Source: Candidatus Saccharimonadota bacterium (lineage in GTDB: Bacteria > Patescibacteriota > Microgenomatia > UBA1406 > GWC2-37-13). From it: 32,000 bases of DNA. This document shows positions 1 to 13,666 of this stretch, piece by piece; position 1 is the first letter of the stretch, and the number at the start of each line of letters is the position of its first letter. A program made the translations under genes and the position numbers. Location of the stretch: assembly GCA_001790095.1 (NCBI GenBank), contig MGBH01000001.1, positions 480,001-512,000 on the forward strand. The letters are read 5' to 3'. The notes below the pieces were generated by a model. It saw only the letters and a program-made list of their open reading frames with translations. It was not told the origin of the DNA and searched no databases.

Positions 1-433
1 CATCTTTACCAGGTACCCAAATATCATCTTTTTTCATACCTGCTTTAATATCCAATAGTTTCTTTCTATATTCTCCTAAATCAACTGTCGGTTTTTCTGC
101 TAATGTGGCCTTTATTTGCCAAGTTTCTTTTTCTTTTGCCTTAACAAGATCTATTTTAGGGGAAACAATAGGTTTTAAGCCTTCTTTCTTTATAATTTCC
201 TCATAAATACGGGGTAGCAATGTACGAATAAGTTGAGAATATACCTGATCTTTGGGAATGTGTTTTTGAGCAATTTGGCTTGGAACTTTTCCTTTACGAA
301 ACCCTTCGAAGCTAAATTCAGCAAGGATAAGATCAAATGCGGTTTTATATTCCTTTTCAATTTCATCCCACGATATCTCAATGATTATTTCAAATGTGTT
401 GGAGGGAAGTTTTTTGACTGTATGTTTTATCAT
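1..433 (-). CDS. tig: Trigger factor, N-terminal part (gene continues beyond the left edge)
   Basis: Own translation of the minus strand from ATG 433..431 gives MIKHTVKKLPSNTFEIIIEISWDEIEKEYKTAFDLILAEFSFEGFRKGKVPSQIAQKHIPKDQVYSQLIRTLLPRIYEEIIKKEGLKPIVSPKIDLVKAKEKETWQIKATLAEKPTVDLGEY..., open to position 1. The GFRKGKVP motif is typical of the trigger-factor ribosome-binding domain. It is absent from the ORF track because no stop lies in the window. Confidence 0.8.
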   Translation of the reverse strand, partial: MIKHTVKKLPSNTFEIIIEISWDEIEKEYKTAFDLILAEFSFEGFRKGKVPSQIAQKHIPKDQVYSQLIRTLLPRIYEEIIKKEGLKPIVSPKIDLVKAKEKETWQIKATLAEKPTVDLGEYRKKLLDIKAGMKKDDIWVPGKD

Positions 434-451
434 TCAATAATGTAAATTGGT

Positions 452-457
452 ATTATA
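452..457 (-). promoter_or_regulatory. Candidate -10 box (TATAAT on the minus strand) for tig
   Basis: Plus-strand attata 452-457 reads TATAAT on the minus strand, 18 nt upstream of the tig ATG (433). No clear -35 was found. Confidence 0.3.
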
Positions 458-464
458 CCTCGAA

Positions 465-481
465 GTCCCGCTTAGCGGGAC
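465..481 (-). other. Short GC-rich hairpin between the hydrolase gene and tig (possible weak terminator or processing site)
   Basis: GTCCCG (465-470), loop CTTAG, CGGGAC (476-481) form a perfect 6-bp GC-rich stem in an AT-rich spacer. It is flanked by direct CGAAG repeats. No U-tract follows on either strand. Confidence 0.3.
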
Positions 482-490
482 GAAGTGGCA

Positions 491-1054
491 TTATAATTCT
501 ACTGTATTGCCGTTCAAAAGCAATAGGTTTTTTTCTTCTTTTTTAAACTGTTCAATAAAGTAAGACACTTTTGAAGACCATGTATTACCCTCACAATAAA
601 TGTTTCCAATCTGTTCCACTGTAGTTGCCCCCTTATCAACATAATTTTCACGCAAACCTTTTCCAACAGTTAAAATCGCTCTATCATAACCGTCAAACTC
701 GATAAGGCCACGACCCCATCCGAACGGATTGTTTGTACCAGTCTTGATAAATTTGGCAAATGTAGATTCAACTCCTGATATAGCAGGCAATAAATAACAG
801 TCAAGGTTATACAACTGGCAAGCTTGAATAAAAGCATCTACATGATCAATGAGAGGAGTTTGAAATTTTGATAAATAGTTTTTTATCGCTCGCTTTTTTA
901 TAAAATAGGTCTGATCGTTTGTGAACGATGCGCCATCAGATTCTGTATAATACATATTTGCAGAGTTACCAGCCACCAAATCAGCACTTACTGGCTGTGT
1001 AAAGATAAGCAAAAGTATTGTCAGTAAAAGTCCTACAAAGTGTTTTATGTGCAT
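491..1054 (-). CDS. Secreted lysozyme-like / glucosaminidase-like peptidoglycan hydrolase (putative)
   Basis: 187-aa ORF with an N-terminal signal peptide (MHIKHFVGLLLTILLLIFTQPVSA|DL). The segment ISGVESTFAKF...NNPFGWG resembles the catalytic Glu plus NNxFG signature of GH73/lysozyme-like hydrolases. AGGA lies 7 nt upstream of the ATG. Confidence 0.6.
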   Translation of the reverse strand: MHIKHFVGLLLTILLLIFTQPVSADLVAGNSANMYYTESDGASFTNDQTYFIKKRAIKNYLSKFQTPLIDHVDAFIQACQLYNLDCYLLPAISGVESTFAKFIKTGTNNPFGWGRGLIEFDGYDRAILTVGKGLRENYVDKGATTVEQIGNIYCEGNTWSSKVSYFIEQFKKEEKNLLLLNGNTVEL

Positions 1055-1099
1055 AAAAAAATCCTAAAGCTTCTCTAGCAGGTAGAGGAACCTTAGGAT
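1055..1099 (-). promoter_or_regulatory. 5' UTR element: long hairpin followed by U7 immediately before the start codon (terminator-shaped, sequesters AGGA)
   Basis: The minus strand reads A-TCCTAAGGTTCCTCT-ACCTGCT-AGAGAAGCTTTAGGA-T, then TTTTTT, then ATG. The stem is about 15-16 bp with one mismatch and two G-U pairs. The only SD-like AGGA lies in its 3' arm. Confidence 0.55.
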
Positions 1100-1107
1100 C
1101 TTTGGTT

Positions 1108-1136
1108 ATTATAACACACTTAACAAATAAAGTCAA
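1108..1136 (-). promoter_or_regulatory. Sigma70-type promoter for the hydrolase gene (TTGACT - 17 nt - extended -10 TGTTATAAT)
   Basis: Read on the minus strand, the -35 TTGACT is plus 1136..1131 and the -10 TATAAT is plus 1113..1108, preceded by TGT (1116..1114). The spacer is 17 nt. The predicted TSS near 1100-1101 falls at the foot of the 5' UTR hairpin. Confidence 0.55.
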
Positions 1137-1148
1137 ATATCTTATAAT
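1120..1148 (+). promoter_or_regulatory. Candidate promoter for mtaB (TTAACA - 17 nt - TATAAT)
   Basis: TTAACA at 1120-1125, a 17-nt spacer, then TATAAT at 1143-1148. A second TATAAT at 1162-1167 lies only 4 nt before the ATG at 1172. Confidence 0.35.
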
Positions 1149-1171
1149 TATATGAAATCTATATAATCAAT

Positions 1172-2503
1172 ATGTATAAACAAATTCGATTTACCAGTTT
1201 TAGCTTTGGCTGTCGAGTTAATGAAGCAGAACGCATTGAAATGAACAGGGAGATGATTGCGGCGGGATTTATATTAGATCACAAGCGACCAGATCTTTTT
1301 ATTATTAATAGTTGTGCTGTTACAAACAAAGCGGAAAGGGAGGTCAGACAGCTTATCATGAAGCTAAAAAGAGATAATCCGAACCTAAGATTGGTTGTAA
1401 CTGGATGTGCAGCAACGTACTGGAGAAAAAACAAACTTTGGAAAAATATACCCATAGATCTTATTATAAGTAATAATCAGAAAACTTCCTTGATTTCTCA
1501 GATTAAGGAATATCATATAAGTAACCCATCAAACCTGGCTGTTTTCCAACCTAGACAGTCGAACAGCGATCAGTTACAGCAAGATAAATTCATATTGTCA
1601 GGCAGAGTTATGATAAAAATACAAGACGGTTGTCACAGATTTTGCAGTTACTGTATAGTTCCACACCTACGCGGCAAACCAAAATCAAGAAAAATATATG
1701 AAATTATACAAAGGGTCAGGGAAAATCAGCAAGGAAATCATATTAATGAAATTATATATACCGCCATTAATACCGAAGCTTTTGGAAAAGATACCGGTGA
1801 GTCTTTACTTCAGCTTATTAAGACATCGATACATCAAATAAAAGTACCCCGAATAAGTTTTGGTTCCATCCATCCATGGAGTATCACCAAAGAGTTTCTC
1901 GACTATTACCGAGTCAATATTGCTAGAAAAAGACTGAGTGATTTTTTTCATGTTCCAATCCAGTCGGGTTCAAATAAAATTCTCAAATATATGAATCGCG
2001 GATATTGTATTGAAGATATTGAAGAACGGCTTAATGAGATCCAAGAGATTAATCCTTTTGCGCTTATTGCAACTGATGTAATCGTTGGTTTTCCTGGTGA
2101 AACAGATACAGAGTTTCAAAATACTTATGAAGCTTTAAAATACTTACCTATAAGCAAGTTTCATATTTTTCGGTTCTCCCCACGTCGTGGCACAGCTGCA
2201 GATCTTTTACGCAAACAGCTTGGTGAACCAACATCTCAGGAAAAGCAAGACAGAGCAAGAATCCTCACGCAGTTGGGAAAGAAAAAATACCAAGAATTTT
2301 TGACTGAGCAAATTGGATCAACAAATACAGGATTATTTATCGGTAACAATAAAGATGCATTACAACAGGCATTGATGCACAATCAAATACCCGTAACCAT
2401 AAAAACAAACGAAGATTTAAATGGGAGAATGATGCAAATAAAAATACTTGAGAAAAAGAATGAAAGACTTTTTGGTGTTATTTGTGGACCTGACAGGACT
2501 TGA
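1172..2503 (+). CDS. mtaB: Radical-SAM methylthiotransferase, MtaB-like (tRNA ms2t6A37 type)
   Basis: 443 aa. The N-terminal MTTase domain has three Cys (FGCRVNEAE, NSCAV, TGCAA). The radical-SAM motif is CHRFCSYC. The C-terminal part is TRAM-like. FGC(K/R)VN.(Y/A)E is the MtaB-type rather than the MiaB or RimO N-terminus. Confidence 0.8.
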   Translation: MYKQIRFTSFSFGCRVNEAERIEMNREMIAAGFILDHKRPDLFIINSCAVTNKAEREVRQLIMKLKRDNPNLRLVVTGCAATYWRKNKLWKNIPIDLIISNNQKTSLISQIKEYHISNPSNLAVFQPRQSNSDQLQQDKFILSGRVMIKIQDGCHRFCSYCIVPHLRGKPKSRKIYEIIQRVRENQQGNHINEIIYTAINTEAFGKDTGESLLQLIKTSIHQIKVPRISFGSIHPWSITKEFLDYYRVNIARKRLSDFFHVPIQSGSNKILKYMNRGYCIEDIEERLNEIQEINPFALIATDVIVGFPGETDTEFQNTYEALKYLPISKFHIFRFSPRRGTAADLLRKQLGEPTSQEKQDRARILTQLGKKKYQEFLTEQIGSTNTGLFIGNNKDALQQALMHNQIPVTIKTNEDLNGRMMQIKILEKKNERLFGVICGPDRT

Positions 2504-2558
2504 ACCTGTGACCTTTTCAATGTCAATGAAACGCTCTAGCCAACTGAGCTACAGGTCC
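2485..2558 (-). tRNA. tRNA-Val (anticodon GAC), no encoded CCA
   Basis: The reverse complement GGACCTG-TA-GCTC-AGTTGGCTA-GAGC-G-TTTCA-TTGACAT-TGAAA-AGGTC-ACAGG-TTCAAGT-CCTGT-CAGGTCC-A folds as a canonical cloverleaf. Confidence 0.9.
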
Positions 2559-2564
2559 AGTGTG

Positions 2565-2638
2565 CGCGACCAAAGGGACTCGGACCCTCAACCTCTTCCG
2601 TGACAGGGAAGCGCTCTAGCCAATTGAGCTATGATCGC
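2565..2638 (-). tRNA. tRNA-Asp (anticodon GUC), no encoded CCA
   Basis: The reverse complement GCGATCA-TA-GCTC-AATTGGCTA-GAGC-G-CTTCC-CTGTCAC-GGAAG-AGGTT-GAGGG-TCCGAGT-CCCTT-TGGTCGC-G folds as a cloverleaf. The acceptor stem has one G-U pair. The T-loop reads TCCGAGT instead of TTCGAGT. Confidence 0.85.
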
Positions 2639-2651
2639 AGTCAAGAATAAT

Positions 2652-2657
2652 ATTATA
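2652..2657 (-). promoter_or_regulatory. Candidate -10 (TATAAT on the minus strand) for the tRNA-Asp/tRNA-Val unit
   Basis: Plus-strand attata 2652-2657 reads TATAAT on the minus strand, 13 nt upstream of the tRNA-Asp 5' end (2638). Confidence 0.35.
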
Positions 2658-2683
2658 CACAAATTATTCTAATTTGATATAAT
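2654..2683 (+). promoter_or_regulatory. Promoter of the thrS leader (TATACA - 15 nt - TGA - TATAAT, extended -10)
   Basis: The extended -10 TGATATAAT is at 2675-2683. A -35-like TATACA is at 2654-2659, 18 nt upstream of the -10 hexamer. The ATG at 2690 is the 7th nucleotide after the -10 hexamer, the predicted +1. Confidence 0.5.
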
Positions 2684-2689
2684 TATTTT

Positions 2690-2737
2690 ATGAGATTTTT
2701 CCTTGTAATGAAAACCACAACTACTATCTCCTGTTAA
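2690..2737 (+). CDS. Leader peptide MRFFLVMKTTTTISC with four consecutive Thr codons (attenuation leader for thrS)
   Basis: ATG AGA TTT TTC CTT GTA ATG AAA ACC ACA ACT ACT ATC TCC TGT TAA. The Thr codons are at 2714-2725. The stop at 2735-2737 lies 1 nt before antiterminator segment 2. It is too short to appear in the ORF track. Confidence 0.5.
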   Translation: MRFFLVMKTTTTISC

Positions 2738-2796
2738 GGAGGGTTTTTGTGTGTAGTTTACAAACCCTCCGAAAGGAGGGATTTTTTGTAACTACA
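2727..2796 (+). promoter_or_regulatory. Transcription attenuator: alternative 1:2, 2:3 (antiterminator) and 3:4 (terminator) pairings
   Basis: Segment 1 is TCTCC 2727-2731, segment 2 is GGAGGGTTT 2738-2746, segment 3 is AAACCCTCC 2762-2770 and segment 4 is GGAGGG 2775-2780. Pairing 2:3 is a perfect 9 bp. Pairing 3:4 is a 6-bp GC stem with a GAAA loop. Segments 2 and 4 lie in a direct repeat AAGGAGGG(T/A)TTTTTGT. Outer arms TGTAGT.TACAAA (2752-2764) and TTTGTA.ACTACA (2785-2796) can extend the terminator stem. Confidence 0.55.
2765..2787 (+). terminator. Intrinsic terminator (CCCTCC-GAAA-GGAGGG followed by A+T6) inside the thrS leader
   Basis: Perfect 6-bp G+C-rich stem, GNRA tetraloop, T-tract at 2782-2787. 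No upstream plus-strand gene needs this terminator, because the preceding genes are minus-strand tRNAs. Confidence 0.6.
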
Positions 2797-2842
2797 TTTT
2801 TAAAAAGTTCCATTTATAATTAAACTAAACTAAAAACAACTT

Positions 2843-4579
2843 ATGGAAAACCAACACCTAGAACCAATGCGACACTCATGCGAACATGTTTTACACCAAG
2901 CGATGACAGATTTATACCCTGGGCTAAAACGTGCGATGGGTCCTCCAACTGAAGATGGATTTTATTTTGATTTTGATTATGACGGAAAAATCTCTGAAGA
3001 AGATTTTCCAAAGATAGAAAAACGTATGAGAGAGCTTGTAAATAAGGATCTTCCGATCGTTAAAAAAGATATAACGCTACTGGAAGCAAAGGATTTATTT
3101 AAAGATAATCCATATAAGCTTGATTGGGTCTCAAAGATTGAACAAGAAGATGGAAGGGCAACGGTCTATTGGACGGGAAATCCTCAGGAAAAAGGATCTG
3201 ACGTAGATCTATGTAAAGGACCACACGTTGCCTCTACGGGCAAAATTGGGCCTTTCAAACTGCTTTCTGTAGCAGGCGCCTACTGGCATGGAGATGAAAA
3301 AAACAAAATGCTTACTCGGATTTACGGTACTTGTTTTCCAACAAAAGAGGAATTGGATGGATATCTAAAAATGATTGAAGAGGCAAAGAAAAGAGATCAT
3401 CGTAAACTCGGAAGGGAACTTGAACTATTTACTATGAACAATGAGGTTGGGCAAGGTATCACTGTTTGGCTACCAAATGGTTCTATAATACGGCGAGAAA
3501 TAGAAGATTACATGGTTACCGAGCAAATAAAGCTTGGTTTTAAGCATGTCTATAGTCCACACATTGGACAAAAATCATTATGGGAAAAAAGTGGGCATTG
3601 GGACTTATATCGGGAAAAGATGTACTCCCCCATGGATGTGGACGGGGTTGAGTACTTAGTCAAACCCATGACTTGTCCTATGCATATTCAATCATTTGAA
3701 TTCAGACCAAAGTCATATCGAGATTTACCCTACCGGATAGCAGAAATTGGATCAGTATACCGCTACGAACAGTCAGGCGAGCTTGCTGGACTTCTTCGGG
3801 TAAGAGCTTTTACTCAAGATGATGCGCATATTTTTTGTACTCAAGATCAGGCAGTTGATGAATTTTTATCTGTTTTTAATTTCATTAATAAACTGTATAA
3901 AATGTTTGGTTTTAAAGACTACCGAATACGTCTTGGTATCAGATCTAAAAAAGAAAAATATTTAGGTGAAGATGAGCTTTGGAACAAAGCTCAAGAAAAG
4001 GCTATTGAGGCTTTGAAAAAAAGTGGATCAGATTATTTTATTTCCGAGGGAGATGCAGCTTTTTACGGTCCTAAAGCTGACTTTCTTATTAAGGATGCCT
4101 TGGGTCGTGAATGGCAATGTGGCACTGTACAGATTGATTTTATGTTACCCGAACGATTCGGTTTAAAATATGTCGATCATGATGGAAAAGAGAAAGTGCC
4201 CGTTATGATCCACCGAGCGCCTCTTGGATCGCTTGAACGTTTTTTAGCCATCTTGATTGAACACTACGCGGGTGCATTTCCTCTATGGCTTGCTCCCGTA
4301 CAAGCAATCGTACTGCCTATCTCTGACAAACACAACGAATATGGGAAAAAGATAGTAGATGAATTAATAAGATCTGGTATAAGAACAGGTTTTGATCAAG
4401 AACCAGAACGAATAGGTAAAAAGATTAGAATTGCGACCTTGCAAAAAATACCCTATATGATTATAATTGGCGATAAGGAAGTAAATGAAGGATCTGTGTC
4501 GGTAAGGACTAGGGAAGGAAAAGATATCGGAACCACAAAAATTACAGAATTTATTCAAACACTAAAAAACAACCATTGA
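2843..4579 (+). CDS. thrS: Threonyl-tRNA synthetase (editing plus catalytic plus anticodon-binding domains; no N-terminal TGS domain)
   Basis: 578 aa. The editing-site motifs are HSCEHVLHQA and DLCKGPH. Also present are RDHRKLGRELELF and the class II motifs FRPKSYRDLP and RVRAFTQDDAHIF. An in-frame TAA at 2831-2833 excludes any N-terminal extension. Confidence 0.95.
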   Translation: MENQHLEPMRHSCEHVLHQAMTDLYPGLKRAMGPPTEDGFYFDFDYDGKISEEDFPKIEKRMRELVNKDLPIVKKDITLLEAKDLFKDNPYKLDWVSKIEQEDGRATVYWTGNPQEKGSDVDLCKGPHVASTGKIGPFKLLSVAGAYWHGDEKNKMLTRIYGTCFPTKEELDGYLKMIEEAKKRDHRKLGRELELFTMNNEVGQGITVWLPNGSIIRREIEDYMVTEQIKLGFKHVYSPHIGQKSLWEKSGHWDLYREKMYSPMDVDGVEYLVKPMTCPMHIQSFEFRPKSYRDLPYRIAEIGSVYRYEQSGELAGLLRVRAFTQDDAHIFCTQDQAVDEFLSVFNFINKLYKMFGFKDYRIRLGIRSKKEKYLGEDELWNKAQEKAIEALKKSGSDYFISEGDAAFYGPKADFLIKDALGREWQCGTVQIDFMLPERFGLKYVDHDGKEKVPVMIHRAPLGSLERFLAILIEHYAGAFPLWLAPVQAIVLPISDKHNEYGKKIVDELIRSGIRTGFDQEPERIGKKIRIATLQKIPYMIIIGDKEVNEGSVSVRTREGKDIGTTKITEFIQTLKNNH

Positions 4580-5109
4580 GAAATACCTATCATAGAAGTC
4601 CTCAACGTAAGTATTGGACGGTCAACTTCCGTATTACCGCTCCTCAACTGCGAGTCATTGATCATGAGGGTAAACAAGTAGGAGTCTTGAGTAAAGACGA
4701 CGCCTTAAGGATTGCACAGGAAAAAGAAATGGATTTGGTTCTTATTGCTGAAAGAGCACAACCGCCTGTTGCAAAAATTATAGATTTTAAGAAGTTTTTG
4801 TACCAAGAAGAAAAAAAACTAAAGGAAGCACGTAAAGGAATAAAAAGAAGTGTAGTAAAAGACGTCAAGTTATCTCTTTTTATCGGACCGGCTGATCTGG
4901 AAAGATTAGTCAATAAGTCAAAGGAATTTCTTAGCAAAGGTAGCCAAGTAAGAATAAATCTAACTTTAAAAGGAAGAGAGATGGGAAAAAGAGATATGGC
5001 TTTTGATCTTATCAAAAAATATCTTACTTCACTTGGTGAAATAAATATATCGAAGGAACCAAGGCTTGAGGGAAGAGTTATTCGTGCTGTTGTTGCCAGA
5101 AAGAAATGA
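4576..5109 (+). CDS. infC: Translation initiation factor IF-3 (non-AUG start; TTG 4576 or ATT 4549)
   Basis: VNFRITAPQLRVIDHEGKQVGVLS...PPVAKIIDFKKFLYQEEKK matches the IF-3 N-domain and linker. The first in-frame ATG is at about codon 52, inside the conserved domain. TTG 4576 overlaps the thrS stop (TTGA). Confidence 0.88.
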   Translation: MRNTYHRSPQRKYWTVNFRITAPQLRVIDHEGKQVGVLSKDDALRIAQEKEMDLVLIAERAQPPVAKIIDFKKFLYQEEKKLKEARKGIKRSVVKDVKLSLFIGPADLERLVNKSKEFLSKGSQVRINLTLKGREMGKRDMAFDLIKKYLTSLGEINISKEPRLEGRVIRAVVARKK

Positions 5110-5167
5110 TTTAATAATCAGCGCTTTACAGATTAATCCAAATAAGATATAATTGAGTTTTCATACT

Positions 5168-5368
5168 ATGAAAGTCAAACAAAAAACACATAAAGGCGCC
5201 TCAAAACGGTTTAAAATTACCAAAAAAGGAAAAATCCTTCATCGATCACAAAAGATTAGACATTTAAGAACTGTCAAGGGAAAAAGGAATATAAGGCGTT
5301 TAAAAACAATGAAGCAGATAAAAGGGACATTTGAAAAAAAAATGAAAAAGATGCTGGGAATTAGATAG
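5168..5368 (+). CDS. rpmI: Ribosomal protein L35
   Basis: MKVKQKTHKGASKRFKITKKGKILHRSQ... is the typical L35 N-terminus. The ORF-track start (TTG 5153) adds 5 non-conserved residues, so ATG 5168 is preferred. TATAAT at 5148-5153 lies upstream. Confidence 0.9.
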   Translation: MKVKQKTHKGASKRFKITKKGKILHRSQKIRHLRTVKGKRNIRRLKTMKQIKGTFEKKMKKMLGIR

Positions 5369-5395
5369 AGTTTACTAATTAGGAAATAATTTTAT

Positions 5396-5740
5396 ATGGT
5401 TAGAGTCAAGGGAGGAGTACATACAAGACGAAAACACAAAAAAGTATTGAAGATGGCGAAAGGTTTTTGGATGACTCGTCATAAACAGTTTAAAAAGGCA
5501 AAAGAAGCAGTGCTCCATGCTGGCCAATATGCTTATGATGGCCGCAAGCTGAAAAAAAGAAATTTTAAGACATTGTGGATCGTTAGATTGAACGCAGCTG
5601 TACGAACACTAGGACTAAACTATAATCAATTTATCCATAAACTTACAGAGAAGAACATAGTTCTCGATAGAAAAGTACTATCTCAAATAGCTGTCGAATA
5701 CCCCTCCGTTTTCTCAAAAATCATTGAGAAAATTAAATAA
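5396..5740 (+). CDS. rplT: Ribosomal protein L20
   Basis: MVRVKGGVHTRRKHKKVLKMAKGFWMTRHKQFKKAKEAV... matches L20. AGGAAA lies about 10 nt upstream. Confidence 0.95.
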   Translation: MVRVKGGVHTRRKHKKVLKMAKGFWMTRHKQFKKAKEAVLHAGQYAYDGRKLKKRNFKTLWIVRLNAAVRTLGLNYNQFIHKLTEKNIVLDRKVLSQIAVEYPSVFSKIIEKIK

Positions 5741-5745
5741 TCAAC

Positions 5746-5754
5746 TGCTATAAT
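5746..5754 (+). promoter_or_regulatory. Extended -10 (TGCTATAAT) 6 nt before the pheS ATG
   Basis: TGCTATAAT 5746-5754, then AATTAG, then ATG 5761. It sits in the 20-nt rplT-pheS spacer, which has no SD. Confidence 0.4.
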
Positions 5755-5760
5755 AATTAG

Positions 5761-6801
5761 ATGGAAGATATCGAAAGCATAAGTGCCTCCATACATGATG
5801 ATATAACAAAGGTAAAAAACCTCAAAGAACTTAGCACTCTTGAGACTCTTTATCTGGGTCGTAACGGTAAGATAAATGAGCTCCTTAAAAAAATGAAGGA
5901 CAAAGGACCAGAGGAAAGGAAAACATATGGACAGAGTGTTAATTTGATAAAGGAAAACTTCATTAAGCTACTTATTTCCAAAAAACAAGCGCTACTAACA
6001 ACTGCTAACAATGATGATTACATTGATGTCACTTTACCTGGAAACAAATATCCAAAAGGCAGTCTGCATTTGATCTCAGTGGCAGTAGAGGAGATAAGCC
6101 GAATTTTTGAAAAAATAAGTTTTATTAGAGTCTCGTATCCTGAGGTTGAGTACGAATTCTTTTCTTTTGAGTCATTAAACATGCCCAAAACTCACGCAGC
6201 ACGGGATGATTTTGAAACATCATTTATACAAGCCCCACAGCATCTTCAATATGGCAAGATGCTCCTTACTCCTCATACTTCCTCAGGTCAAGTAAGAGAA
6301 ATGTGGCGTGTAGGCACCCCACCCATTCGCATGATCAATATAGCTAAGACCTACCGCCCAAACTGGGACGCAACACATACTCCTATGTTTTTTCAGTTTG
6401 AAGGTCTGTGTATAGATACAGACATAAATATCACTCATTTAAAGGGTACTCTTGATTACTTTGTAAAAGCATATTTTGGCAATGATATAGAAGCGAGACT
6501 TCGACCTCATCACTTTCAGTTTACCGAACCTTCCTTTGAGGTCGATGTGACCTGTACGGTTTGCAAGGGTACTGCACTTGTTGACAAACAAAGATGTAGG
6601 GTGTGCAAATCTGGTTGGCTTGAGTTAGGAGGCACCGGGATGGTTCATCCAAATGTTCTTATTTCCGGAAAAATTGATCCAAATATATATTCAGGTTGGG
6701 CGTTTGGATTTGGTATCGAACGAGTAATAATGATGAAATATGGAATAGATGACATCAGGAATTATTATTCAGGTGACATCCGTTTTTTAGAGCAGTTTTA
6801 A
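5761..6801 (+). CDS. pheS: Phenylalanyl-tRNA synthetase alpha subunit
   Basis: 346 aa. Motifs are HHFQFTEPSFEVDV, a CxxC...CxxC zinc-ribbon insert (CTVCKG...CRVCKSGWLELGGTGMVHPNVL), and motif 3 GWAFGFGIERVIMMKYGIDDIR. Confidence 0.95.
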   Translation: MEDIESISASIHDDITKVKNLKELSTLETLYLGRNGKINELLKKMKDKGPEERKTYGQSVNLIKENFIKLLISKKQALLTTANNDDYIDVTLPGNKYPKGSLHLISVAVEEISRIFEKISFIRVSYPEVEYEFFSFESLNMPKTHAARDDFETSFIQAPQHLQYGKMLLTPHTSSGQVREMWRVGTPPIRMINIAKTYRPNWDATHTPMFFQFEGLCIDTDINITHLKGTLDYFVKAYFGNDIEARLRPHHFQFTEPSFEVDVTCTVCKGTALVDKQRCRVCKSGWLELGGTGMVHPNVLISGKIDPNIYSGWAFGFGIERVIMMKYGIDDIRNYYSGDIRFLEQF

Positions 6802-6810
6802 TACCTTTTT

Positions 6811-8793
6811 ATGAATACGAAAATCACGCATTCTTGGTTGTTGGAATATCTTGATACAAAGGCAACTCCTTTGGAAATCCAAAAATATCTTTCACTTTGT
6901 GGCCCATCAATAGAGAAAGTAGAGAAAACACAAGGGGGTGATTATGTGTATGATGTAGAAATCACCTCAAACAGAGTTGATACCGCCTCAGTAATGGGTA
7001 TCGCCCGAGAGGCAGCCACCATACTCACGCGATTTGGTATTAAGTCAGCATATAAACCACCAAGGCTTGAGTTCTCAAAACAAACCGCAGAGACCGGTTT
7101 GCCCCTTGATATTGTAGATAGTAAAGGCTTGTGTAAACGAATTATGGCTGTTGTCATGGACAATATCACTATCAAACCCTCACCAAAACTCATTCAAAAA
7201 AGATTGCAAGATGTAGGCATAAGATCATTAAACAACGTAGTTGATATAACCAATTATGTGATGACAGAAATTGGCCATCCAACTCATGTTTTTGATTATG
7301 ACCGAATAATGACACACAAACTTATCATTCGCAAAGCAAAGAATAATGAAGAGATAGTAACGCTTGATGAAAAAAAGTACTTGTTGTCAGATGAAGATGT
7401 CATCATTGATGATGGAACAGGTAGAGTAATAGACTTACCGGGAATCATGGGCACTGCCAATAGTGTGGTAACAAAAGAAACAAAACGTATTATATTTTTT
7501 ATTGAGTCAAATAGTCCTGTTGCAATTCGACGAAGTTCTATGAGATATGGTATACGGACCGTTGCTGCGACTATCAATGAAAAAGCACCGGATCCAGAAC
7601 TAGTAGAGGTTGCCCTTATAAAGGGCATTGATCTTTTCAAAGAAATGGCGGGTGCAAAAGTAAGCGGAGGTATAATAGATATTTTTCCAAAAAAACCGAC
7701 TAACACAATTATTAATATCAACCTTGAGTATATAAATAAAAAAATAGGCGTAGTTATATCGCTTGAGCAGGTCGTAAAGATACTTAAAGGGCTTCAGTTT
7801 GATGTAAAGGTAACTAAGGAGTCAATACTAAACATTAAAGTTCCCTCATTTAGGAGAAATGATGTACTTATCCGGGAAGATATAATTGAAGAAATAGCAC
7901 GAATCTATGGTTATCACAACCTTCCTAATAACTTATCACCCGCTCGTTACGTTAAGCAACCAAAAGAATTTGAAGATTTATTTGTGAATACCAACAAAAT
8001 AAAATTATTTCTTAAACATATAGGTCTTCATGAAGTACTTAACTACTCTATGATTTCTCTTTCGATGATACATAATTTTGGTCTCAATGAAAAGCAACAC
8101 TTGTATCTTTCAAATGTTTTGTCAGAAGATATCAAATACTTACGTATAACTCTTTTACCTTCGCTTGTCAAAAATATCAAAACCAATGAAGGCAGACAAA
8201 AAATCATGCGCTTTTTTGAACTTGCTAAAGTATATAAACCCAAGACAAACTCATTACCAGAGGAGTCCTATAAACTGGGAATTGCACTCAACACCTCCTT
8301 TGATGACTTAAAGGGTGTGGTTGAAGCTCTCCTTGATGAATTACATATCGATCAATATGCATTTAACCGGTCATCAAGCCCTTATTTCTCCACTACACAA
8401 GCAGCGCTTTTTATCAAAGGAGAAGAAGTTGGATTATTAGGTAAGCTTAAACCATCTTATCAAGAGTCAAACCTGCTTTCATATGAATGTATGTTGGCCG
8501 AAATTGACTTTGACCGTCTTATTCACCACGTAAAACAAGTATCAAACTATAAACCCCTTCACCCTTTCGCAATCATCAAACTTGATACATCATTTATTTT
8601 ATCATCAACACTTTCATATGAACAGTTCAGGGATAAAGCATTCAAAATGTCAAACTTGCTCAATAAGGTTGAGGTTGTTGATAGATATAAAAATAAGGTC
8701 ACTATCAGATTGTACTTTTCTTCACCACACAAAAACATCACTGAAGGTGAGGCAAAAGAAGCACTACAACTCATCAATCCATCAAGAGGATGA
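6811..8793 (+). CDS. pheT: Phenylalanyl-tRNA synthetase beta subunit (short form lacking the OB-fold/B2 tRNA-binding domain)
   Basis: 660 aa. The B1-like N-terminus runs directly into ...YDVEITSNRVDTASVMGIAREAA (the NR(A/V)D motif). B3/4, B5 and a C-terminal FDX-ACB-like domain follow. It is adjacent to pheS. Confidence 0.9.
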   Translation: MNTKITHSWLLEYLDTKATPLEIQKYLSLCGPSIEKVEKTQGGDYVYDVEITSNRVDTASVMGIAREAATILTRFGIKSAYKPPRLEFSKQTAETGLPLDIVDSKGLCKRIMAVVMDNITIKPSPKLIQKRLQDVGIRSLNNVVDITNYVMTEIGHPTHVFDYDRIMTHKLIIRKAKNNEEIVTLDEKKYLLSDEDVIIDDGTGRVIDLPGIMGTANSVVTKETKRIIFFIESNSPVAIRRSSMRYGIRTVAATINEKAPDPELVEVALIKGIDLFKEMAGAKVSGGIIDIFPKKPTNTIININLEYINKKIGVVISLEQVVKILKGLQFDVKVTKESILNIKVPSFRRNDVLIREDIIEEIARIYGYHNLPNNLSPARYVKQPKEFEDLFVNTNKIKLFLKHIGLHEVLNYSMISLSMIHNFGLNEKQHLYLSNVLSEDIKYLRITLLPSLVKNIKTNEGRQKIMRFFELAKVYKPKTNSLPEESYKLGIALNTSFDDLKGVVEALLDELHIDQYAFNRSSSPYFSTTQAALFIKGEEVGLLGKLKPSYQESNLLSYECMLAEIDFDRLIHHVKQVSNYKPLHPFAIIKLDTSFILSSTLSYEQFRDKAFKMSNLLNKVEVVDRYKNKVTIRLYFSSPHKNITEGEAKEALQLINPSRG

Positions 8794-11400
8794 GGAGCTT
8801 TGGCTACTTTCTGAGGAAGAAGATGAGGTGGGAATGAGTTGAGGAGTGTTAGTTGGACCTGAAGTCGGCGCTGCATAATCCCAAGGTTTATTCAAACCAA
8901 ATTTTATCATTGACTCACCTGATTTGTCTTTATCGTTGACCGCCCTTACTTTTAGTTCATATGTACCATCCGAATATCCGCTAAAGGTTTCATCTATCTC
9001 CCGTTTATCTTCATTATAATTTTTCACCTCATTGTTATTAATAAATATTTTGACATTTTTTAAACTATTTAAGGTAGTGATTTTTACTTTCACGTTTATA
9101 CTGTTGCCGTTTACCGTGGTTTTGTCCGAGGGAGACTTAATAGATACGAGCACATTCTCAGAGTTATTATCACTTATGTCTGTTGGACAGTGAAATTTAT
9201 CATCGGTCATCTCTTTACGCCAGGCATCAATGCCTTCCTGCCAACGATTCTTACCGTCGGTTGATATGGGATCGTTTTCAATAAGCACCACGCAGTCTTT
9301 TTCATCATAATTGCCCGATTTTATCTCTATATCATTTGCAAGTTTACCATTTGATTTACTTATCTTCAATTTTTTATATGCGGGAGAAACATCTTTTGGT
9401 TCGGTTCCCTCAATAAAATACTCACTCCTTGTTTGTTGACCATCTTTTGGTAACCCACCAAGCCAAGAATCAATAGTAAGAGCCTTAACTTTATCCGGCT
9501 TATCCATTATACCGTCTGGATATGTTTTGAGCAGGGCAATCATGGTTTTGTACCAAATAGGAGATGCTCCTGTTGATCCGGATGAGATATTTGGATTCAT
9601 CTTGCTGTTGTCATTGTTTCCAACCCATACCCCAACAGTTATACCCTTTGTAAAACCAATTGCCCAGTTGTCACGTTTATCATCGGTTGTACCTGTTTTG
9701 ACCGCAACAGTCTTACTAGGGACGTTAAGAAACGACCTTGTACCAAATACTTCAGCTCTTGCGTTGTTGTCTGACAGTATATGTGAGATCAAAAAAGAAA
9801 CTTCGGGAGAAAAAGGCTTGGTTTCTTTACCCCCCTTCGCGCGGTAAATTATGTGATTCCGGTGATCTTTTATCTCAAGTATTGACTGAGTTTCTTTTCT
9901 AATCCCACCACGAGCAAATACAGAGAAAGCGCCTGTTATATCAAGGAGGGTCACCTCGCCACCCCCAAGGGTAATTGACATACCAAAACGATTAAGATTC
10001 TCATTGGTGGGTGCAAGAGTCAAGAGACCTAAATCAGACGCTTTTTGTAGAAAATCTTTTATCCCAATCATTGCCAAAAGTTTTACTGCGGGTATATTGA
10101 TTGAATTAGCTAAGGCAAAACGAAGTTGTTGCGCACCCCTATACTTACCATCATAATTTACGGGAATATAATCCGGTTGATCCTTTACTGGAAAAACAGT
10201 CTTTACATCCATAAGTACCGTTGAGGGCGTGTATCCTTTTTCAAATGCAGTTGCATAAGTAATGGGTTTTATTGTTGATCCAGGCTGACGAAGTCCAAGA
10301 GCAGCATTAAATTTGCCATATTCGGGGTCATTAAAATCATATGAACCAACCATGGCAAGAACTTCATTTGACTGTGAATCCAGGACAACCGTTGCTCCGT
10401 TACCAACCTTATAATCATCTTTAATTTCATTAATTTCGTCTTTCACTATTTTTTCTACCTTCGTTTGTGTTTCAAGAGAAAGAGTAGTTTTTATTTTTAA
10501 ACCTTGATCCAATATCTTGGTTCCATATTCTTTTTCTATTTGTTCTTTTACGTAAAAGACAAAGTGGGGTGCATTGATAGACATCTTCGAAGAGGAAAAC
10601 TTTACTTTATCCAACTGTGTTAACGAGCCTGCTTCTTGTTTTTTTGTGATATAACCATCTTCTTTCATCCTGCGCAGTACATCTTTTGTTCTACTTTTCC
10701 AAGCGTCTTTTTTACCAATAAATGGCGAATAGTAACTAGGCAGTTGAGGTAAACCGGCAAGGATGGCCGATTCAGTGATGGTTAAATCTTTGGGAGACTT
10801 GTTGAAGTATCCTTTTGCTGCAGATCCAATACCAACAAAGCTTCCACCATATGGAATCTCATTTAGATACATCTCAAGAATCTGGTCTTTTGTGTATTTT
10901 CCTTCGACCGAAATAGCAAGTATTATTTCTTTTATTTTTCTTGAACCCGTCAGACTTGAATCCAAAAGGACATTTTTAATGAGCTGCTGAGTAATGGTTG
11001 AACCGCTTCCTTGAACGCTTCCCTTTAGAAGCATGTTAATAACTGAGCGTAGCATGCCGGTCTGTGAAATGCCTCCGTGTTTGTAAAATGACTTGTCCTC
11101 GATTGCGATCGTTGCATGTTTTAGATAATCGGAGATGTCCTTCATGGCAACGGGTAACCTGTTTTTGTCTTTATACATCTCAAATAGCACCTTGCCGTCT
11201 CTGTCATAAAAGACAGTCGCATTTTCTGAAATTTGGGAAAGTTTTCCAGGCTCAGGAAGATCTTTGGCATACCAAGCAAATAGAATAAATATAAAAAAAA
11301 GACCCAAAATAACAGCGCCAATGCAACCTATTCCAATATATTTGAATAGATGTTCTTTTTTTAAGCTAAATCTAACTCTTTTTCTTTTACTTACATACAT
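8782..11400 (-). CDS. Class A penicillin-binding protein (bifunctional GT51 transglycosylase / transpeptidase) with C-terminal Ig-like extension and Ser-rich tail
   Basis: GT51 motifs are EDKSFYKHGGIS, GSGSTITQQL and RKIKE. Transpeptidase motifs are STIKP (SxxK), SIN (SxN) and KTGTT. There is an N-terminal TM anchor. ATG 11400 (MYVSKRKR...) is preferred over the track's TTG 11442 because TGGTATACT (11415..11407) sits 6 nt upstream. Confidence 0.9.
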   Translation of the reverse strand: MYVSKRKRVRFSLKKEHLFKYIGIGCIGAVILGLFFIFILFAWYAKDLPEPGKLSQISENATVFYDRDGKVLFEMYKDKNRLPVAMKDISDYLKHATIAIEDKSFYKHGGISQTGMLRSVINMLLKGSVQGSGSTITQQLIKNVLLDSSLTGSRKIKEIILAISVEGKYTKDQILEMYLNEIPYGGSFVGIGSAAKGYFNKSPKDLTITESAILAGLPQLPSYYSPFIGKKDAWKSRTKDVLRRMKEDGYITKKQEAGSLTQLDKVKFSSSKMSINAPHFVFYVKEQIEKEYGTKILDQGLKIKTTLSLETQTKVEKIVKDEINEIKDDYKVGNGATVVLDSQSNEVLAMVGSYDFNDPEYGKFNAALGLRQPGSTIKPITYATAFEKGYTPSTVLMDVKTVFPVKDQPDYIPVNYDGKYRGAQQLRFALANSINIPAVKLLAMIGIKDFLQKASDLGLLTLAPTNENLNRFGMSITLGGGEVTLLDITGAFSVFARGGIRKETQSILEIKDHRNHIIYRAKGGKETKPFSPEVSFLISHILSDNNARAEVFGTRSFLNVPSKTVAVKTGTTDDKRDNWAIGFTKGITVGVWVGNNDNSKMNPNISSGSTGASPIWYKTMIALLKTYPDGIMDKPDKVKALTIDSWLGGLPKDGQQTRSEYFIEGTEPKDVSPAYKKLKISKSNGKLANDIEIKSGNYDEKDCVVLIENDPISTDGKNRWQEGIDAWRKEMTDDKFHCPTDISDNNSENVLVSIKSPSDKTTVNGNSINVKVKITTLNSLKNVKIFINNNEVKNYNEDKREIDETFSGYSDGTYELKVRAVNDKDKSGESMIKFGLNKPWDYAAPTSGPTNTPQLIPTSSSSSESSQSSSSS

Positions 11401-11406
11401 AGTTGT

Positions 11407-11415
11407 AGTATACCA
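11407..11415 (-). promoter_or_regulatory. Extended -10 (TGGTATACT, minus strand) 6 nt before the PBP ATG
   Basis: The minus strand reads TGGTATACT-ACAACT-ATG (ATG at 11400..11398). Confidence 0.4.
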
Positions 11416-11447
11416 ACTGAAAGAGTAAACCGCAAAAAACAAACTTT

Positions 11448-11456
11448 TGATATACT
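11448..11456 (+). promoter_or_regulatory. Extended -10 (TGATATACT) 7 nt before a small ORF upstream of recG
   Basis: TGATATACT 11448-11456, then ATAGTTT, then ATG 11464. Confidence 0.35.
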
Positions 11457-11463
11457 ATAGTTT

Positions 11464-11577
11464 ATGAAAATCGGAAAAGTAAAAATAAAAAAAGAGTTTA
11501 TTTGGAAAATAATCATGATCGTATCATCTATCTTACTTATTCTTTCTTCTCTTTCACCTATGTTGTTCATACGGTAA
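11464..11577 (+). CDS. Hypothetical 37-aa single-pass membrane peptide
   Basis: Own translation gives MKIGKVKIKKEFIWKIIMIVSSILLILSSLSPMLFIR*. It has a Lys-rich N-terminus followed by a hydrophobic stretch of about 20 aa, and leaderless-type promoter geometry. No homology could be recalled. Confidence 0.3.
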   Translation: MKIGKVKIKKEFIWKIIMIVSSILLILSSLSPMLFIR

Positions 11578-11599
11578 ATATAATATACTGTCTAAGTAT

Positions 11600-13666
11600 A
11601 TGATGATTCTTGACACTCCTATTGAATCTCTACCCGCAACAAGCCCTCTTACTATTAAACGTTTAAAATTAATAGGGATTGAAACTTATTGCGATCTTCT
11701 CAACTACTTTCCATATCGGTACGAAGATTACTCCATAATTAGTCCGATCATGAGCATCCAGGAAGGGGAAACCGTTACTATAAGGGGAACTGTCATCAAG
11801 TCAACCAATGAATACACCAAAAGAGGCTACAAACTGCAGAAAATTACATTGCAAGATAAAACAGGAAGTCTTCAAATCACATGGATAAATCAACCATATC
11901 TAGCGCATATATTTAAGACGGGGGTTACACTTTCTGTATCTGGGCTGGTAACCCGCTTTGCCGGTAAATTAACATTACAACCAAACGGATGGGAGATAAT
12001 TAAGGACGAATCAATGCACACGGGCAGAATCATCCCCGTCTATTCTGAGATACATGGACTTTCCACAAAAACACTTCGTGAAAAAGTATTCCATGTTATC
12101 TCTCACCTCAAAAATACACAGGAACCCCCGGAGAGTCTTCCCACAGAGGTCCTTATATATAACAACCTTATATCTTTCCATGAAGCATATATAGAAGTAC
12201 ACTACCCCTCGTCCAAAGAACGTTTAAAACAAGCTCGACTAAGATTGGGCTTTAATGAAATGCTTATTTTACAGTTATCTCTTCTCTTAAAAAAACATGA
12301 GCAAAAACAAAAAAAAGTTATGTATCAGTTTTCTTTAGACGATATAGAAAAGAAACAAAAAATAAAAAATTTCATAGAACGTCTTCCATTTAAGTTAACA
12401 AACGGCCAAAAAGAGGCAATATACGATATTGAACAAGATCTAAAAAAACAAAATCCTATGAATAGATTTCTCCAGGGAGATGTTGGTTCAGGAAAAACCG
12501 TGGTTGCCGCATTGGCTGCTTATATTACCTATCTAAATGGGTATCAAACCCTCATAATGGCTCCAACCGAGATCTTGGCGGATCAGCATTATCAAACAAT
12601 GCTACGTCTTTTTAAGGAAACGTCAGTAAAGATAGCTATCCAAACGGGATCAAAGAAAAATTTAAAAAAAGATTCCTCGAACTTTGATATCATAGTCGGA
12701 ACTCAGGCGCTACTCACTAAGTCTCTTATCTTTAACAAGGTTGGTTTTATCGTTATAGACGAACAACATAGATTTGGAGTGGCTCAGCGAGCCCTTTTAA
12801 AAGAAAAAGGTGGCGAACCACACCTGCTTACTATGACTGCAACACCTATACCTCGTACACTAGCGCTCACTCTTTATGGAGAAATTGACCTCACTGTTAT
12901 ATCTGAGATGCCTCAAGGCCGTCTGCCAGTAAAAACATATCTTGTACCCTCAAAAAAGCGACAAAAAGCCTATGAGTGGATCAAAAATAAAATCCTAACA
13001 GACAGATGTCAGACGTTCATTGTTTGTCCTTTGATAGAAGAATCAAAAGAAGAGACAAAAATATCAGTAAAGGCTGCAAAAAAGGAGTATGAACGTCTGC
13101 AAAAAAATGTTTTTCCTACTTTGCGAGTAGCGCTTTTACATGGAAAGCTTAAAAGTAAAGAAAAAACTGAGATTATGCAGGAATTTACCCGAAAAAAGTA
13201 TGATATTCTTGTATCTACGTCTGTTGTGGAAGTAGGTATAGATATTCCTGATGCAACGATCATGATCATTGAAGGAGCAGAGAAATACGGGTTAGCACAG
13301 CTTCACCAATTAAGAGGAAGAATTGGGCGAGGGAATAGACAATCATACTGCTATCTTTTTTCAGACAATCAAGAACCAGCCGTTCTTCACAGACTCAACT
13401 TTTTTTCCTCAACTACAAACGGAGCGGAGTTATCTGAGTATGATTTACATCACAGGGGACCCGGCAATATCTTCGGCACAAACCAGCATGGTTATTTAAA
13501 ACTTAAAATCGCTTCACTAAGCGATATCTCTCTCATAAAACAATCAAAAAATGCAGCAGATTACTTGATTAAAAAGTCGCCTGACCTTAAACTATTTCCA
13601 AAACTACTTTCTTCTTTAAATTCAAACCAACCGCAAACACACCTTGGCAAATCATCTACGATATGA
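11600..13666 (+). CDS. recG: ATP-dependent DNA helicase RecG
   Basis: 688 aa. N-terminal wedge/OB region, helicase motifs GDVGSGKT and DEQHRFG, MTATPIPRTL, QLHQLRGRIGRG. Confidence 0.93.
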   Translation: MMILDTPIESLPATSPLTIKRLKLIGIETYCDLLNYFPYRYEDYSIISPIMSIQEGETVTIRGTVIKSTNEYTKRGYKLQKITLQDKTGSLQITWINQPYLAHIFKTGVTLSVSGLVTRFAGKLTLQPNGWEIIKDESMHTGRIIPVYSEIHGLSTKTLREKVFHVISHLKNTQEPPESLPTEVLIYNNLISFHEAYIEVHYPSSKERLKQARLRLGFNEMLILQLSLLLKKHEQKQKKVMYQFSLDDIEKKQKIKNFIERLPFKLTNGQKEAIYDIEQDLKKQNPMNRFLQGDVGSGKTVVAALAAYITYLNGYQTLIMAPTEILADQHYQTMLRLFKETSVKIAIQTGSKKNLKKDSSNFDIIVGTQALLTKSLIFNKVGFIVIDEQHRFGVAQRALLKEKGGEPHLLTMTATPIPRTLALTLYGEIDLTVISEMPQGRLPVKTYLVPSKKRQKAYEWIKNKILTDRCQTFIVCPLIEESKEETKISVKAAKKEYERLQKNVFPTLRVALLHGKLKSKEKTEIMQEFTRKKYDILVSTSVVEVGIDIPDATIMIIEGAEKYGLAQLHQLRGRIGRGNRQSYCYLFSDNQEPAVLHRLNFFSSTTNGAELSEYDLHHRGPGNIFGTNQHGYLKLKIASLSDISLIKQSKNAADYLIKKSPDLKLFPKLLSSLNSNQPQTHLGKSSTI

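Follow-up and report, generated by a model that had tools for sequence, protein, structure and literature searches.

We analysed the region upstream of the threonyl-tRNA synthetase (ThrRS) gene thrS in a stretch of 32,000 nucleotides from contig MGBH01000001.1 (assembly GCA_001790095.1, positions 480,001 to 512,000), called here the window. This region contains a short open reading frame (ORF) with four consecutive threonine codons and an intrinsic terminator that competes with an alternative helix. We consider it very probable that these elements form a ribosome-mediated transcription attenuator with a leader peptide, tuning thrS to the supply of charged tRNA-Thr. The evidence for this reading is comparative rather than experimental: of roughly 156 related loci, about 25 have a short ORF with a threonine run, accompanied by an intrinsic terminator, upstream of thrS. 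Mechanisms of this kind are already known from the trp, thr and pheST operons. New is the occurrence before thrS in Patescibacteria, which is solidly supported in silico. The ThrRS of the window matches the one from Candidatus Roizmanbacteria bacterium RIFOXYB2_FULL_38_10 (Patescibacteria, candidate phyla radiation) at 100% identity. This lineage appears in at least 24 assemblies, and aquifer and groundwater samples contain the genome.

Candidate attenuator upstream of thrS

The candidate regulatory region consists of the following features.

2654..2683, plus strand: candidate sigma-70-type promoter with a -35-like box TATACA (2654-2659) or TACACA (2656-2661) and the extended -10 box TGATATAAT (2675-2683).
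2690..2737, plus strand: thrL-like leader ORF, MRFFLVMKTTTTISC and stop, without a Shine-Dalgarno box; probably leaderless or nearly so.
2714..2725, plus strand: regulatory codons ACC ACA ACT ACT, four threonines in a row.
2714..2732, plus strand: segment 1, the threonine codons and AUCUCCU, pairing with segment 2 in minimum free energy (MFE) folds.
2737..2754, plus strand: segment 2, (A)GGAGGGUUUUUGUGUGUA, beginning 1 nt past the stop codon and pairing with segment 1 or segment 3.
2759..2770, plus strand: segment 3, UACAAACCCUCC, pairing with segment 2 (antiterminator) or segment 4 (terminator).
2765..2787, plus strand: intrinsic terminator CCCUCC-GAAA-GGAGGG (3:4), then A and U6.
2752..2796, plus strand: optional extension of the terminator hairpin, UGUAGUU (2752-2758) with AACUACA (2790-2796), -21.1 kcal/mol.

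All sequence features listed in the initial annotation of this region were found in place, only two details being off by one base. The extended -10 box is separated from ATG 2690 by the six-base spacer TATTTT; the ORF has 15 codons and the stop TAA (2735-2737). The four segments of the initial annotation were TCTCC (2727-2731), GGAGGGTTT (2738-2746), AAACCCTCC (2762-2770) and GGAGGG (2775-2780), the latter followed by A and T6 (2782-2787), and these positions are confirmed. The first of them needs to be extended, as in the folds the threonine codons 2714-2725 also pair with 2745-2754. Classical 1:2/2:3/3:4 attenuators likewise have their regulatory codons within segment 1. The direct repeat described around segments 2 and 4 does exist in two copies, but the T-runs are of unequal length: one copy is GGAGGG+T5+GT, the other GGAGGG+A+T6+GT. 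The downstream TATAAT is situated at 2815-2820 and not, as annotated, at 2814-2819.

The promoter scan reports the -10 box with its TG extension (10 of 12 matches) and the -35-like TATACA or TACACA. Among the hits of the terminator scan are CCCTCCGAAAGGAGGG+ATTTTTTGTA and the 1:2 hairpin, TCTCCTGTTAAGGAGG+GTTTTTGTGT. The threonine leader is the only short ORF with an amino acid run and a terminator on the plus strand of the window. The leader region (700 bases) has no differences in three other metagenome assemblies and thus is not an assembly artefact; since these assemblies are identical, they yield no compensatory changes between strains.

The predicted fold of the region 2690-2800 has an energy of -35.5 kcal/mol; with z = -4.4, it is more stable than all 200 shuffled sequences. 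Helix 2:3 excludes both 3:4 and 1:2, with predicted energies of -15.4 kcal/mol for 2:3, -12.2 kcal/mol for 3:4 and -13.4 kcal/mol for 1:2; when paired with segment 3, segment 2 constitutes the 5' strand of the antiterminator. The unmasked RNA of the window forms the 1:2 hairpin and the terminator 3:4 (-29.9 kcal/mol). If the RNA is masked to 2731-2737, only the antiterminator 2:3 is formed (-15.4 kcal/mol), and if the mask is extended to 2746-2750, the terminator 3:4 returns. The outer stem of the terminator hairpin appears in the folds only after the U-tract and the downstream bases have been transcribed. Constrained folds, both of the window and of its relatives, reproduce in prediction the dependence on the ribosome position that the initial annotation had proposed.

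From this arrangement we infer the following mode of regulation. Transcription would begin at ATG 2690 or within a few bases of it, and a ribosome would translate the 15-codon leader behind the RNA polymerase. When Thr-tRNA is plentiful, the ribosome would reach the stop codon TAA (2735-2737) and cover segment 2 (2738-2750); free segment 3 would then pair with segment 4, and the helix CCCUCC/GGAGGG with U6 would end transcription near position 2787. When Thr-tRNA is scarce, the ribosome would stall at 2714-2725 and cover segment 1, leaving segment 2 free; the 2:3 helix would block the terminator, and the polymerase would enter thrS and probably infC-rpmI-rplT-pheST as well. In the absence of a ribosome both 1:2 and 3:4 would form, and transcription would terminate.

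Leaderless initiation at ATG 2690 is plausible, judging from the promoter geometry. Most related leaders have a -10-like hexamer whose end lies 6-11 nt ahead of their start codon, and in the window, as well as in loci L081, L009, L014 and L032 (the related loci are denoted by L and a number), this distance is exactly 6 nt. Shine-Dalgarno-like motifs precede only two of 29 window genes, and several first genes have TATAAT or TACAAT 4-8 nt before the ATG (e.g. those starting at 1172, 5761, 11600, 25862 and 29950). This suggests that leaderless mRNAs are widespread in this genome, and leaderless initiation looks common in it.

The 1:2 hairpin TCTCC-TGTTAA-GGAGG (2727-2752), flagged by the terminator scan, itself runs into GTTTTTGTGT. 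It could be a pause site of the polymerase, synchronising it with the ribosome. As a first terminator or pause site, this hairpin, followed by GUUUUUGUGU, was not retained as a core part of the element, because the U-rich tail is present after the hairpin in L002 and L169, but absent in L086 and L001. Two AAGGAGG motifs were considered as candidate ribosome-binding sites. This possibility was rejected: the genome hardly uses Shine-Dalgarno sequences, and the motifs are followed only by TTG-TAA or by a 14-codon TTG frame.

Threonine leaders and pairing segments in related loci

The initial annotation had suggested that a short ORF with a threonine run should recur in relatives if the element is functional. 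Genome and metagenome collections supplied 160 thrS loci, and protein look-ups added ten more. The best relative found by ThrRS scans of genomes and metagenomes had at most 73% identity, whereas the protein search with contig look-ups yielded relatives with 76-81% identity. In Patescibacteria, the regions upstream of thrS are indeed strongly enriched in threonine-run ORFs with a terminator behind them, and this enrichment is specific.

Short ORFs with at least three consecutive threonine codons were observed upstream of thrS in 21 of 149 loci. Runs of four or more threonine codons occur in ten of 149 upstream regions, whereas there are none on the reverse strand, and any other amino acid has at most one such run. 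The density of threonine runs upstream of thrS exceeds that in the rest of the loci 27-fold, and several of the matches counted elsewhere in the loci are leaders situated farther upstream. A detector requiring both the threonine-run ORF and a terminator found 20 candidates in 336 kb of the plus strand upstream of thrS, none in 606 kb of the plus strand from the thrS start codon onward, and seven in 942 kb of the reverse strands. No proteobacterial locus of the genome set (L037-L080) has a short ORF with a threonine run in the 450 nt before thrS.

The nearest homologous leaders are MSIKFIITTTTISW in L164, MMDLSLILTTTTFSC in L001 and MNIKFIITTTTIS in L086, each ending with a stop codon, and they have the same architecture as the window. 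Further homologous leaders are MKIKIIHSITITTFP in L162, MKMNLNINGTTTTLV in L002 (both again followed by a stop) and the first leader of L169. The GGAGGG/CCCUCC helices are common to all these loci (L164, L162, L001, L086, L002, L169) and the window, and the terminator hairpin CCCUCC-GAAA-GGAGGG also occurs in L086, L164, L162 and L001. In the threonine codons, L164, L001 and L086 differ from the window at synonymous third positions; in L162 and L169, one of the four threonines is replaced in each. The run ends two or three codons before the leader stop. Only the run and its position are conserved in the peptides, which argues against a functional micro-protein.

These codon-level observations bear on the possibility of an RNA-only sensor of the T-box type, in which ACC, ACA or ACU would bind the anticodon of tRNA-Thr, so that the antiterminator would be stabilised by uncharged tRNA and translation would play no part. 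In favour of such a sensor, many related genomes carry a compact T-box-like leader before thrS, and three loci (L016, L095 and L036) have both devices in tandem. However, the threonine run always shares its frame with a start codon, in most loci 6-11 nt past a -10 box, the in-frame stop two or three codons after the run abuts segment 2, and the changes in close relatives are mostly at third codon positions. Moreover, the window has no match to the Rfam T-box model (RF00230) at E ≤ 1 and no bulge motif UGGNACC in 2639-2842, unlike, for instance, L093 and L168, where this bulge is present. We regard an RNA-only sensor in the window as very unlikely.

The four-segment plan of the attenuator is seen in more than 12 loci. 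Behind the stop lies a G/U-rich "anti-Thr-codon" stretch with which the threonine codons pair; this stretch overlaps the strand complementary to the 5' arm of the terminator, and the terminator comes next. Segment 2 starts 0-5 nt past the stop in most loci (11 nt in L009), and the U-tract usually follows the stop by 40-61 nt, in L081 and L036 by 79-80 nt.

Co-variation of the 2:3 and 3:4 helices, the other comparative test proposed initially, was observed at the level of architecture: there are eight types of terminator stems, and each has a matching segment 2. Column-wise analysis of covariation on a MAFFT alignment was dropped, as the helices are out of register across subfamilies, and was replaced by spacer shuffles, comparison of cognate and non-cognate duplexes, and ribosome-masking folds. 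Cognate 2:3 duplexes have the mean energy of -14.7 kcal/mol, compared to -8.4 +/- 2.4 kcal/mol for non-cognate ones (Mann-Whitney p = 8e-12), and in 15 of 18 loci no non-cognate arm equals the cognate partner. In most loci of the short class, the z-scores obtained by spacer shuffling are about -2 to -4 for both 1:2 and 2:3. With a ribosome mask at the stop codon, the predicted MFE structure contains the terminator in all 17 loci considered; with the mask at the second threonine codon, the predicted terminator is lost in 16 of 17.

Another possibility is coincidence. An ordinary, possibly bidirectional, terminator could insulate the upstream methylthiotransferase (MtaB-like) and tRNA gene region, the threonine run could have arisen by chance in A+T-rich DNA, and thrS could be transcribed from a downstream promoter. 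Several properties of the window would fit: the 5' flank of the hairpin is rich in A, its stem can grow into a long symmetric one, TATAAT is present at 2815-2820, and promoter-like hexamers are no more common in the region than in shuffled sequence. On the other hand, the threonine run, the stop abutting segment 2 and the terminator recur in about 25 thrS loci that have unrelated flanking genes and different helix sequences. The effect is confined to threonine among all amino acids, and the detector finds nothing on the plus strand from the thrS start onward. We consider this explanation highly improbable, and in practice the comparative data exclude a chance ORF next to an ordinary terminator.

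Several observations do weigh against the attenuator. Firstly, its presence is patchy: L161, L163, L165 and L166 have no leader, and other relatives have T-box-like structures instead. The ThrRS of L161 is 81% identical to that of the window, but only 80 nt of upstream sequence are available in this locus. Among 16 relatives with ThrRS identity of at least 60% and sufficient upstream sequence, eight have the leader, three have a T-box-like structure, and five have neither. Secondly, in five of 17 loci the unmasked MFE structure does not contain the terminator. Thirdly, a tRNA-Val gene on the thrS strand ends 7 nt (L164) or 4 nt (L001) before the leader start. This leaves no room for a promoter, so that the leaderless start defined by a promoter cannot be general, and implies co-transcription of the leader with the tRNA; in some lineages the 5' end of the leader mRNA might be created by 3' processing of the tRNA. 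Fourthly, a bypass promoter downstream of the terminator might exist at TATAAT (2815-2820); this box, however, lacks a good -35 partner and does not appear in the promoter scan. Fifthly, since this genome is nearly devoid of Shine-Dalgarno sequences, the lack of one at the leader is uninformative. Finally, we know of no demonstration of transcription-translation coupling in Patescibacteria.

Comparison with known systems and T-box-like leaders

The window contains the characteristic components of leader-peptide attenuators: a short ORF with cognate codons, an intermediate terminator, the exclusive pairings 1:2, 2:3 and 3:4, and the predicted ribosome geometry. The likeness to E. coli thrL and pheM, noted in the initial annotation, holds, in that by analogy the element would work in the same way. 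In E. coli thrL (RF00506), a run of threonine codons in a short leader ORF is combined with exclusive 1:2, 2:3 and 3:4 pairings and an intrinsic terminator. Sensing of Thr-tRNA by a codon run, the pairings and the terminator are shared with the candidate element. However, thrL controls the biosynthetic operon thrABC and not a synthetase, contains isoleucine codons as well, has its own ribosome-binding site, and shows no detectable homology to the window in sequence or structure (no Rfam match at E ≤ 1). The pheM-pheST system of E. coli is a leader-peptide attenuator before a synthetase operon in the thrS-infC-rpmI-rplT-pheST neighbourhood. It differs in having phenylalanine codons and in its position directly before pheS, whereas the attenuator of the window stands at the head of the cluster, before thrS.

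Rfam models, applied to positions 1-12000 of the window at E ≤ 1, reported only two tRNAs, and no Thr_leader, T-box or ribosomal-protein leader. In 20 related loci, again, only tRNAs were reported, and none of 14 loci with leaders matched RF00506 at the gathering score. Judging by these searches, the element belongs to no known Rfam family and is not a Thr_leader.

In Firmicutes, thrS and thrZ are preceded by T-boxes, where low charging of tRNA-Thr favours the antiterminator over the terminator. The output is the same as that proposed for the window, induction of the synthetase at poor tRNA charging. The sensor is different, as it is formed by RNA-tRNA contacts rather than by a translating ribosome, and the window has no T-box features.

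The E. coli ThrRS operator, in which the synthetase binds leader hairpins resembling the anticodon arm and represses its own expression, has to be considered as well, since the loop UGUUAA of the 1:2 hairpin contains UGU, a tRNA-Thr anticodon. However, this loop is not conserved: L086 has UGAUAA and L164 has UGGUAA, there simply the region of the stop codon. The element stops 55 nt upstream of the thrS start codon, does not overlap the ribosome-binding region, and contains a canonical terminator with a U-tract. Regulation by an operator of this type in the window thus seems extremely unlikely.

Leader peptides of synthetase genes have been described in Streptomyces lividans, where a leaderless "thrL" precedes thrS, and leader peptides were also annotated for leuS, trpS and alaS (PMC8079986). 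Pairing with thrS and the absence of a 5' untranslated region make this thrL similar to the leader of the window; its peptide MKRVRPFLETTPGFVPAR, however, has only two threonines, there is no clear U-rich terminator, and the annotation is based on RNA-seq (PMC8079986). It is actinobacterial and not homologous to the window leader. The initial annotation knew of no described leader-peptide attenuator for thrS-infC-rpmI-rplT-pheST; for the pairing with thrS there is a weak precedent in S. lividans (PMC8079986), and none was found for Patescibacteria. In the literature on leader peptides or attenuation of thrS, we found only this S. lividans annotation, and nothing for Patescibacteria or the candidate phyla radiation. 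A 2024 overview of Patescibacteria in PNAS mentions riboswitches only as possible engineered tools and does not mention native attenuation.

A histidine leader peptide replaces the T-box in hisS paralogues of Bacilli (Naville and Gautheret 2010, PMC2965389). The amino acid, the phylum and the sequence are different there, and that example, too, is a computational prediction (PMC2965389). In mycobacteria, the abstract of a preprint describes leaderless polycysteine upstream ORFs (uORFs) as attenuators that sense for the downstream genes (bioRxiv 10.1101/834739). As described there, they resemble the window in being leaderless short ORFs with a codon run for a single amino acid, but the codons are those of cysteine, the genes are metabolic and the bacteria are Actinobacteria.

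The two actinobacterial examples raise the question of output. The leader might sense Thr-tRNA and act not by intrinsic termination, but by Rho-dependent polarity, mRNA stability or translational coupling. The mycobacterial leaderless uORF attenuators are reported to affect operon expression (10.1101/834739), the S. lividans thrL lacks a clear terminator (PMC8079986), and in four related loci (L028, L122, L021 and L015) the threonine-run ORFs have no detectable terminator. Against this, most relatives share with the window a hairpin that runs directly into 5-8 U, together with a competing antiterminator; this combination is the hallmark of control by intrinsic termination. An output of the other kind is very unlikely overall; Rho or mRNA stability could mediate the response in the few loci that lack a terminator, but could not do so in the window.

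A compact T-box-like leader of approximately 140 nt was found at the same position upstream of thrS in about 28 related loci, as follows.

L093:1342-1482, T-box-like leader
L168:1045-1183, T-box-like leader
L138:991-1133, T-box-like leader
L016:930-1071, T-box-like leader
L104:2218-2357, T-box-like leader
L109:2293-2437, T-box-like leader
L167:1009-1151, T-box-like leader
L088:565-702, T-box-like leader
about 20 further loci, T-box-like leaders

These structures have a short stem I with the loop CUCACCAACCUC (ACC-A, resembling a threonine specifier), a small hairpin in the middle, an antiterminator whose 7-nt bulge is the canonical UGGAACC, and then a terminator. RNAalifold predicts 26 pairs, 15 of them with compensatory changes. 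None of these leaders was reported by the Rfam T-box model at the gathering score or at E ≤ 1.

In three loci, the T-box-like element is directly followed by a threonine leader: L016 (approximately 930-1160, leader MKKLVQYTTTTRSYFVRRCVRG and stop), L095 (approximately 2049-2200) and L036 (approximately 2752-2895). L169 contains two consecutive threonine leaders (302-355 and 407-472), each with its own terminator.

Gene neighbourhood and biological implications

The candidate attenuator is flanked by the following genes.

2843..4579, plus strand: thrS (ThrRS, 578 aa), then infC, rpmI, rplT, pheS and pheT, ending at 8793; identified by Pfam and NCBIfam.
2484..2638, minus strand: tRNA-Val(GAC) and tRNA-Asp(GUC), divergent from thrS; context, outside the switch.

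The gap between rplT and pheS is only 20 nt. The promoter of the minus-strand tRNA pair must fall in 2639-2690. According to the initial annotation, no plus-strand gene lies upstream that the terminator could serve; in fact there is one, encoding the MtaB-like methylthiotransferase (1172-2503), but the two minus-strand tRNA genes do intervene. At their 3' ends, the MtaB-like ORF and the minus-strand tRNA-Val gene (2484-2558) share 20 bases. Other genes of the window encode type IV pilus components, a class A penicillin-binding protein, RecG, NusB and RNase III.

The gene order MtaB-like, (tRNA-Asp), tRNA-Val(GAC), leader, thrS is conserved (L164:1219-1305, L001:126-207, L165:1125-1203 and 2484-2638 in the window). 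In L165, tRNA-Val abuts the ATG of thrS. In the relatives these tRNAs are encoded on the thrS strand, whereas in the window the pair is inverted and a new extended -10 box is present before the leader.

The thrS loci of several relatives have additional features. In L001:324-2582 (a relative with 73% identity), the thrS frame of 752 aa has an N-terminal Pfam domain tRNA_edit (YbaK/ProX-like) before the ThrRS domains; as read from the sequence, this single frame is a candidate fusion or two overlapping genes. An ORF of 60-103 aa without Pfam matches is situated between the threonine leader and thrS in L003 (2612-2830), L081 (1194-1412) and L169 (552-863), and similar small ORFs follow the leaders of L016, L087 and L095. 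A strong ribosome-binding motif GGAGGTG precedes the small ORF in L016, L087, L095 and L169. The products from L081, L016 and L169 appear unrelated, in a comparison made only by eye.

In L002 (667-3000), a leader of the same type heads an operon that includes thrS and has a functional link to threonine. The threonine leader (667-714) and its terminator are followed by two ORFs (784-1743 and 1715-2998) and by thrS starting at 3007. The first ORF encodes a dehydrogenase of the NAD-dependent epimerase family, and the second one is Kbl-like (glycine C-acetyltransferase/BioF family). In L170 (1-1112), too, the aminotransferase-family gene immediately precedes thrS. Assignment of this pair as Tdh-like and Kbl-like is tentative, the NCBIfam scores being below the curated cut-offs: NCBIfam does not confirm the epimerase-family gene as threonine dehydrogenase, and the Kbl-like gene, too, falls below its cut-off. 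Induction of such a pair by threonine starvation would make sense if the pathway were reversed, from glycine and acetyl-CoA to threonine, and the position of the leader may point to threonine being made by reversal of its degradation.

To our knowledge, native gene regulation in Patescibacteria, which have tiny genomes and few recognisable regulators, is essentially undescribed. One possible, although rather doubtful, generalisation is that these bacteria sense the charging of tRNA-Thr before thrS by a repertoire of their own in place of protein regulators, consisting of threonine leader peptides and compact T-box variants. The leaders would lack Shine-Dalgarno boxes and be leaderless or linked to tRNAs, the T-boxes would lie outside the Rfam model, and the two would sometimes stand in tandem. 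If true, this would be the first evidence of coupling-dependent attenuation in this radiation.

A working attenuator, conserved before an essential synthetase operon, would mean that Patescibacteria cells monitor tRNA charging, that translation is coupled to transcription closely enough for attenuation, and that initiation occurs without Shine-Dalgarno sequences. It would also provide a compact natural expression switch for the few cultivable members of the group, and an annotation rule for such mini-ORFs. The T-box-like leaders at the same site in sister lineages would make it a clear case of sensor exchange before one gene.

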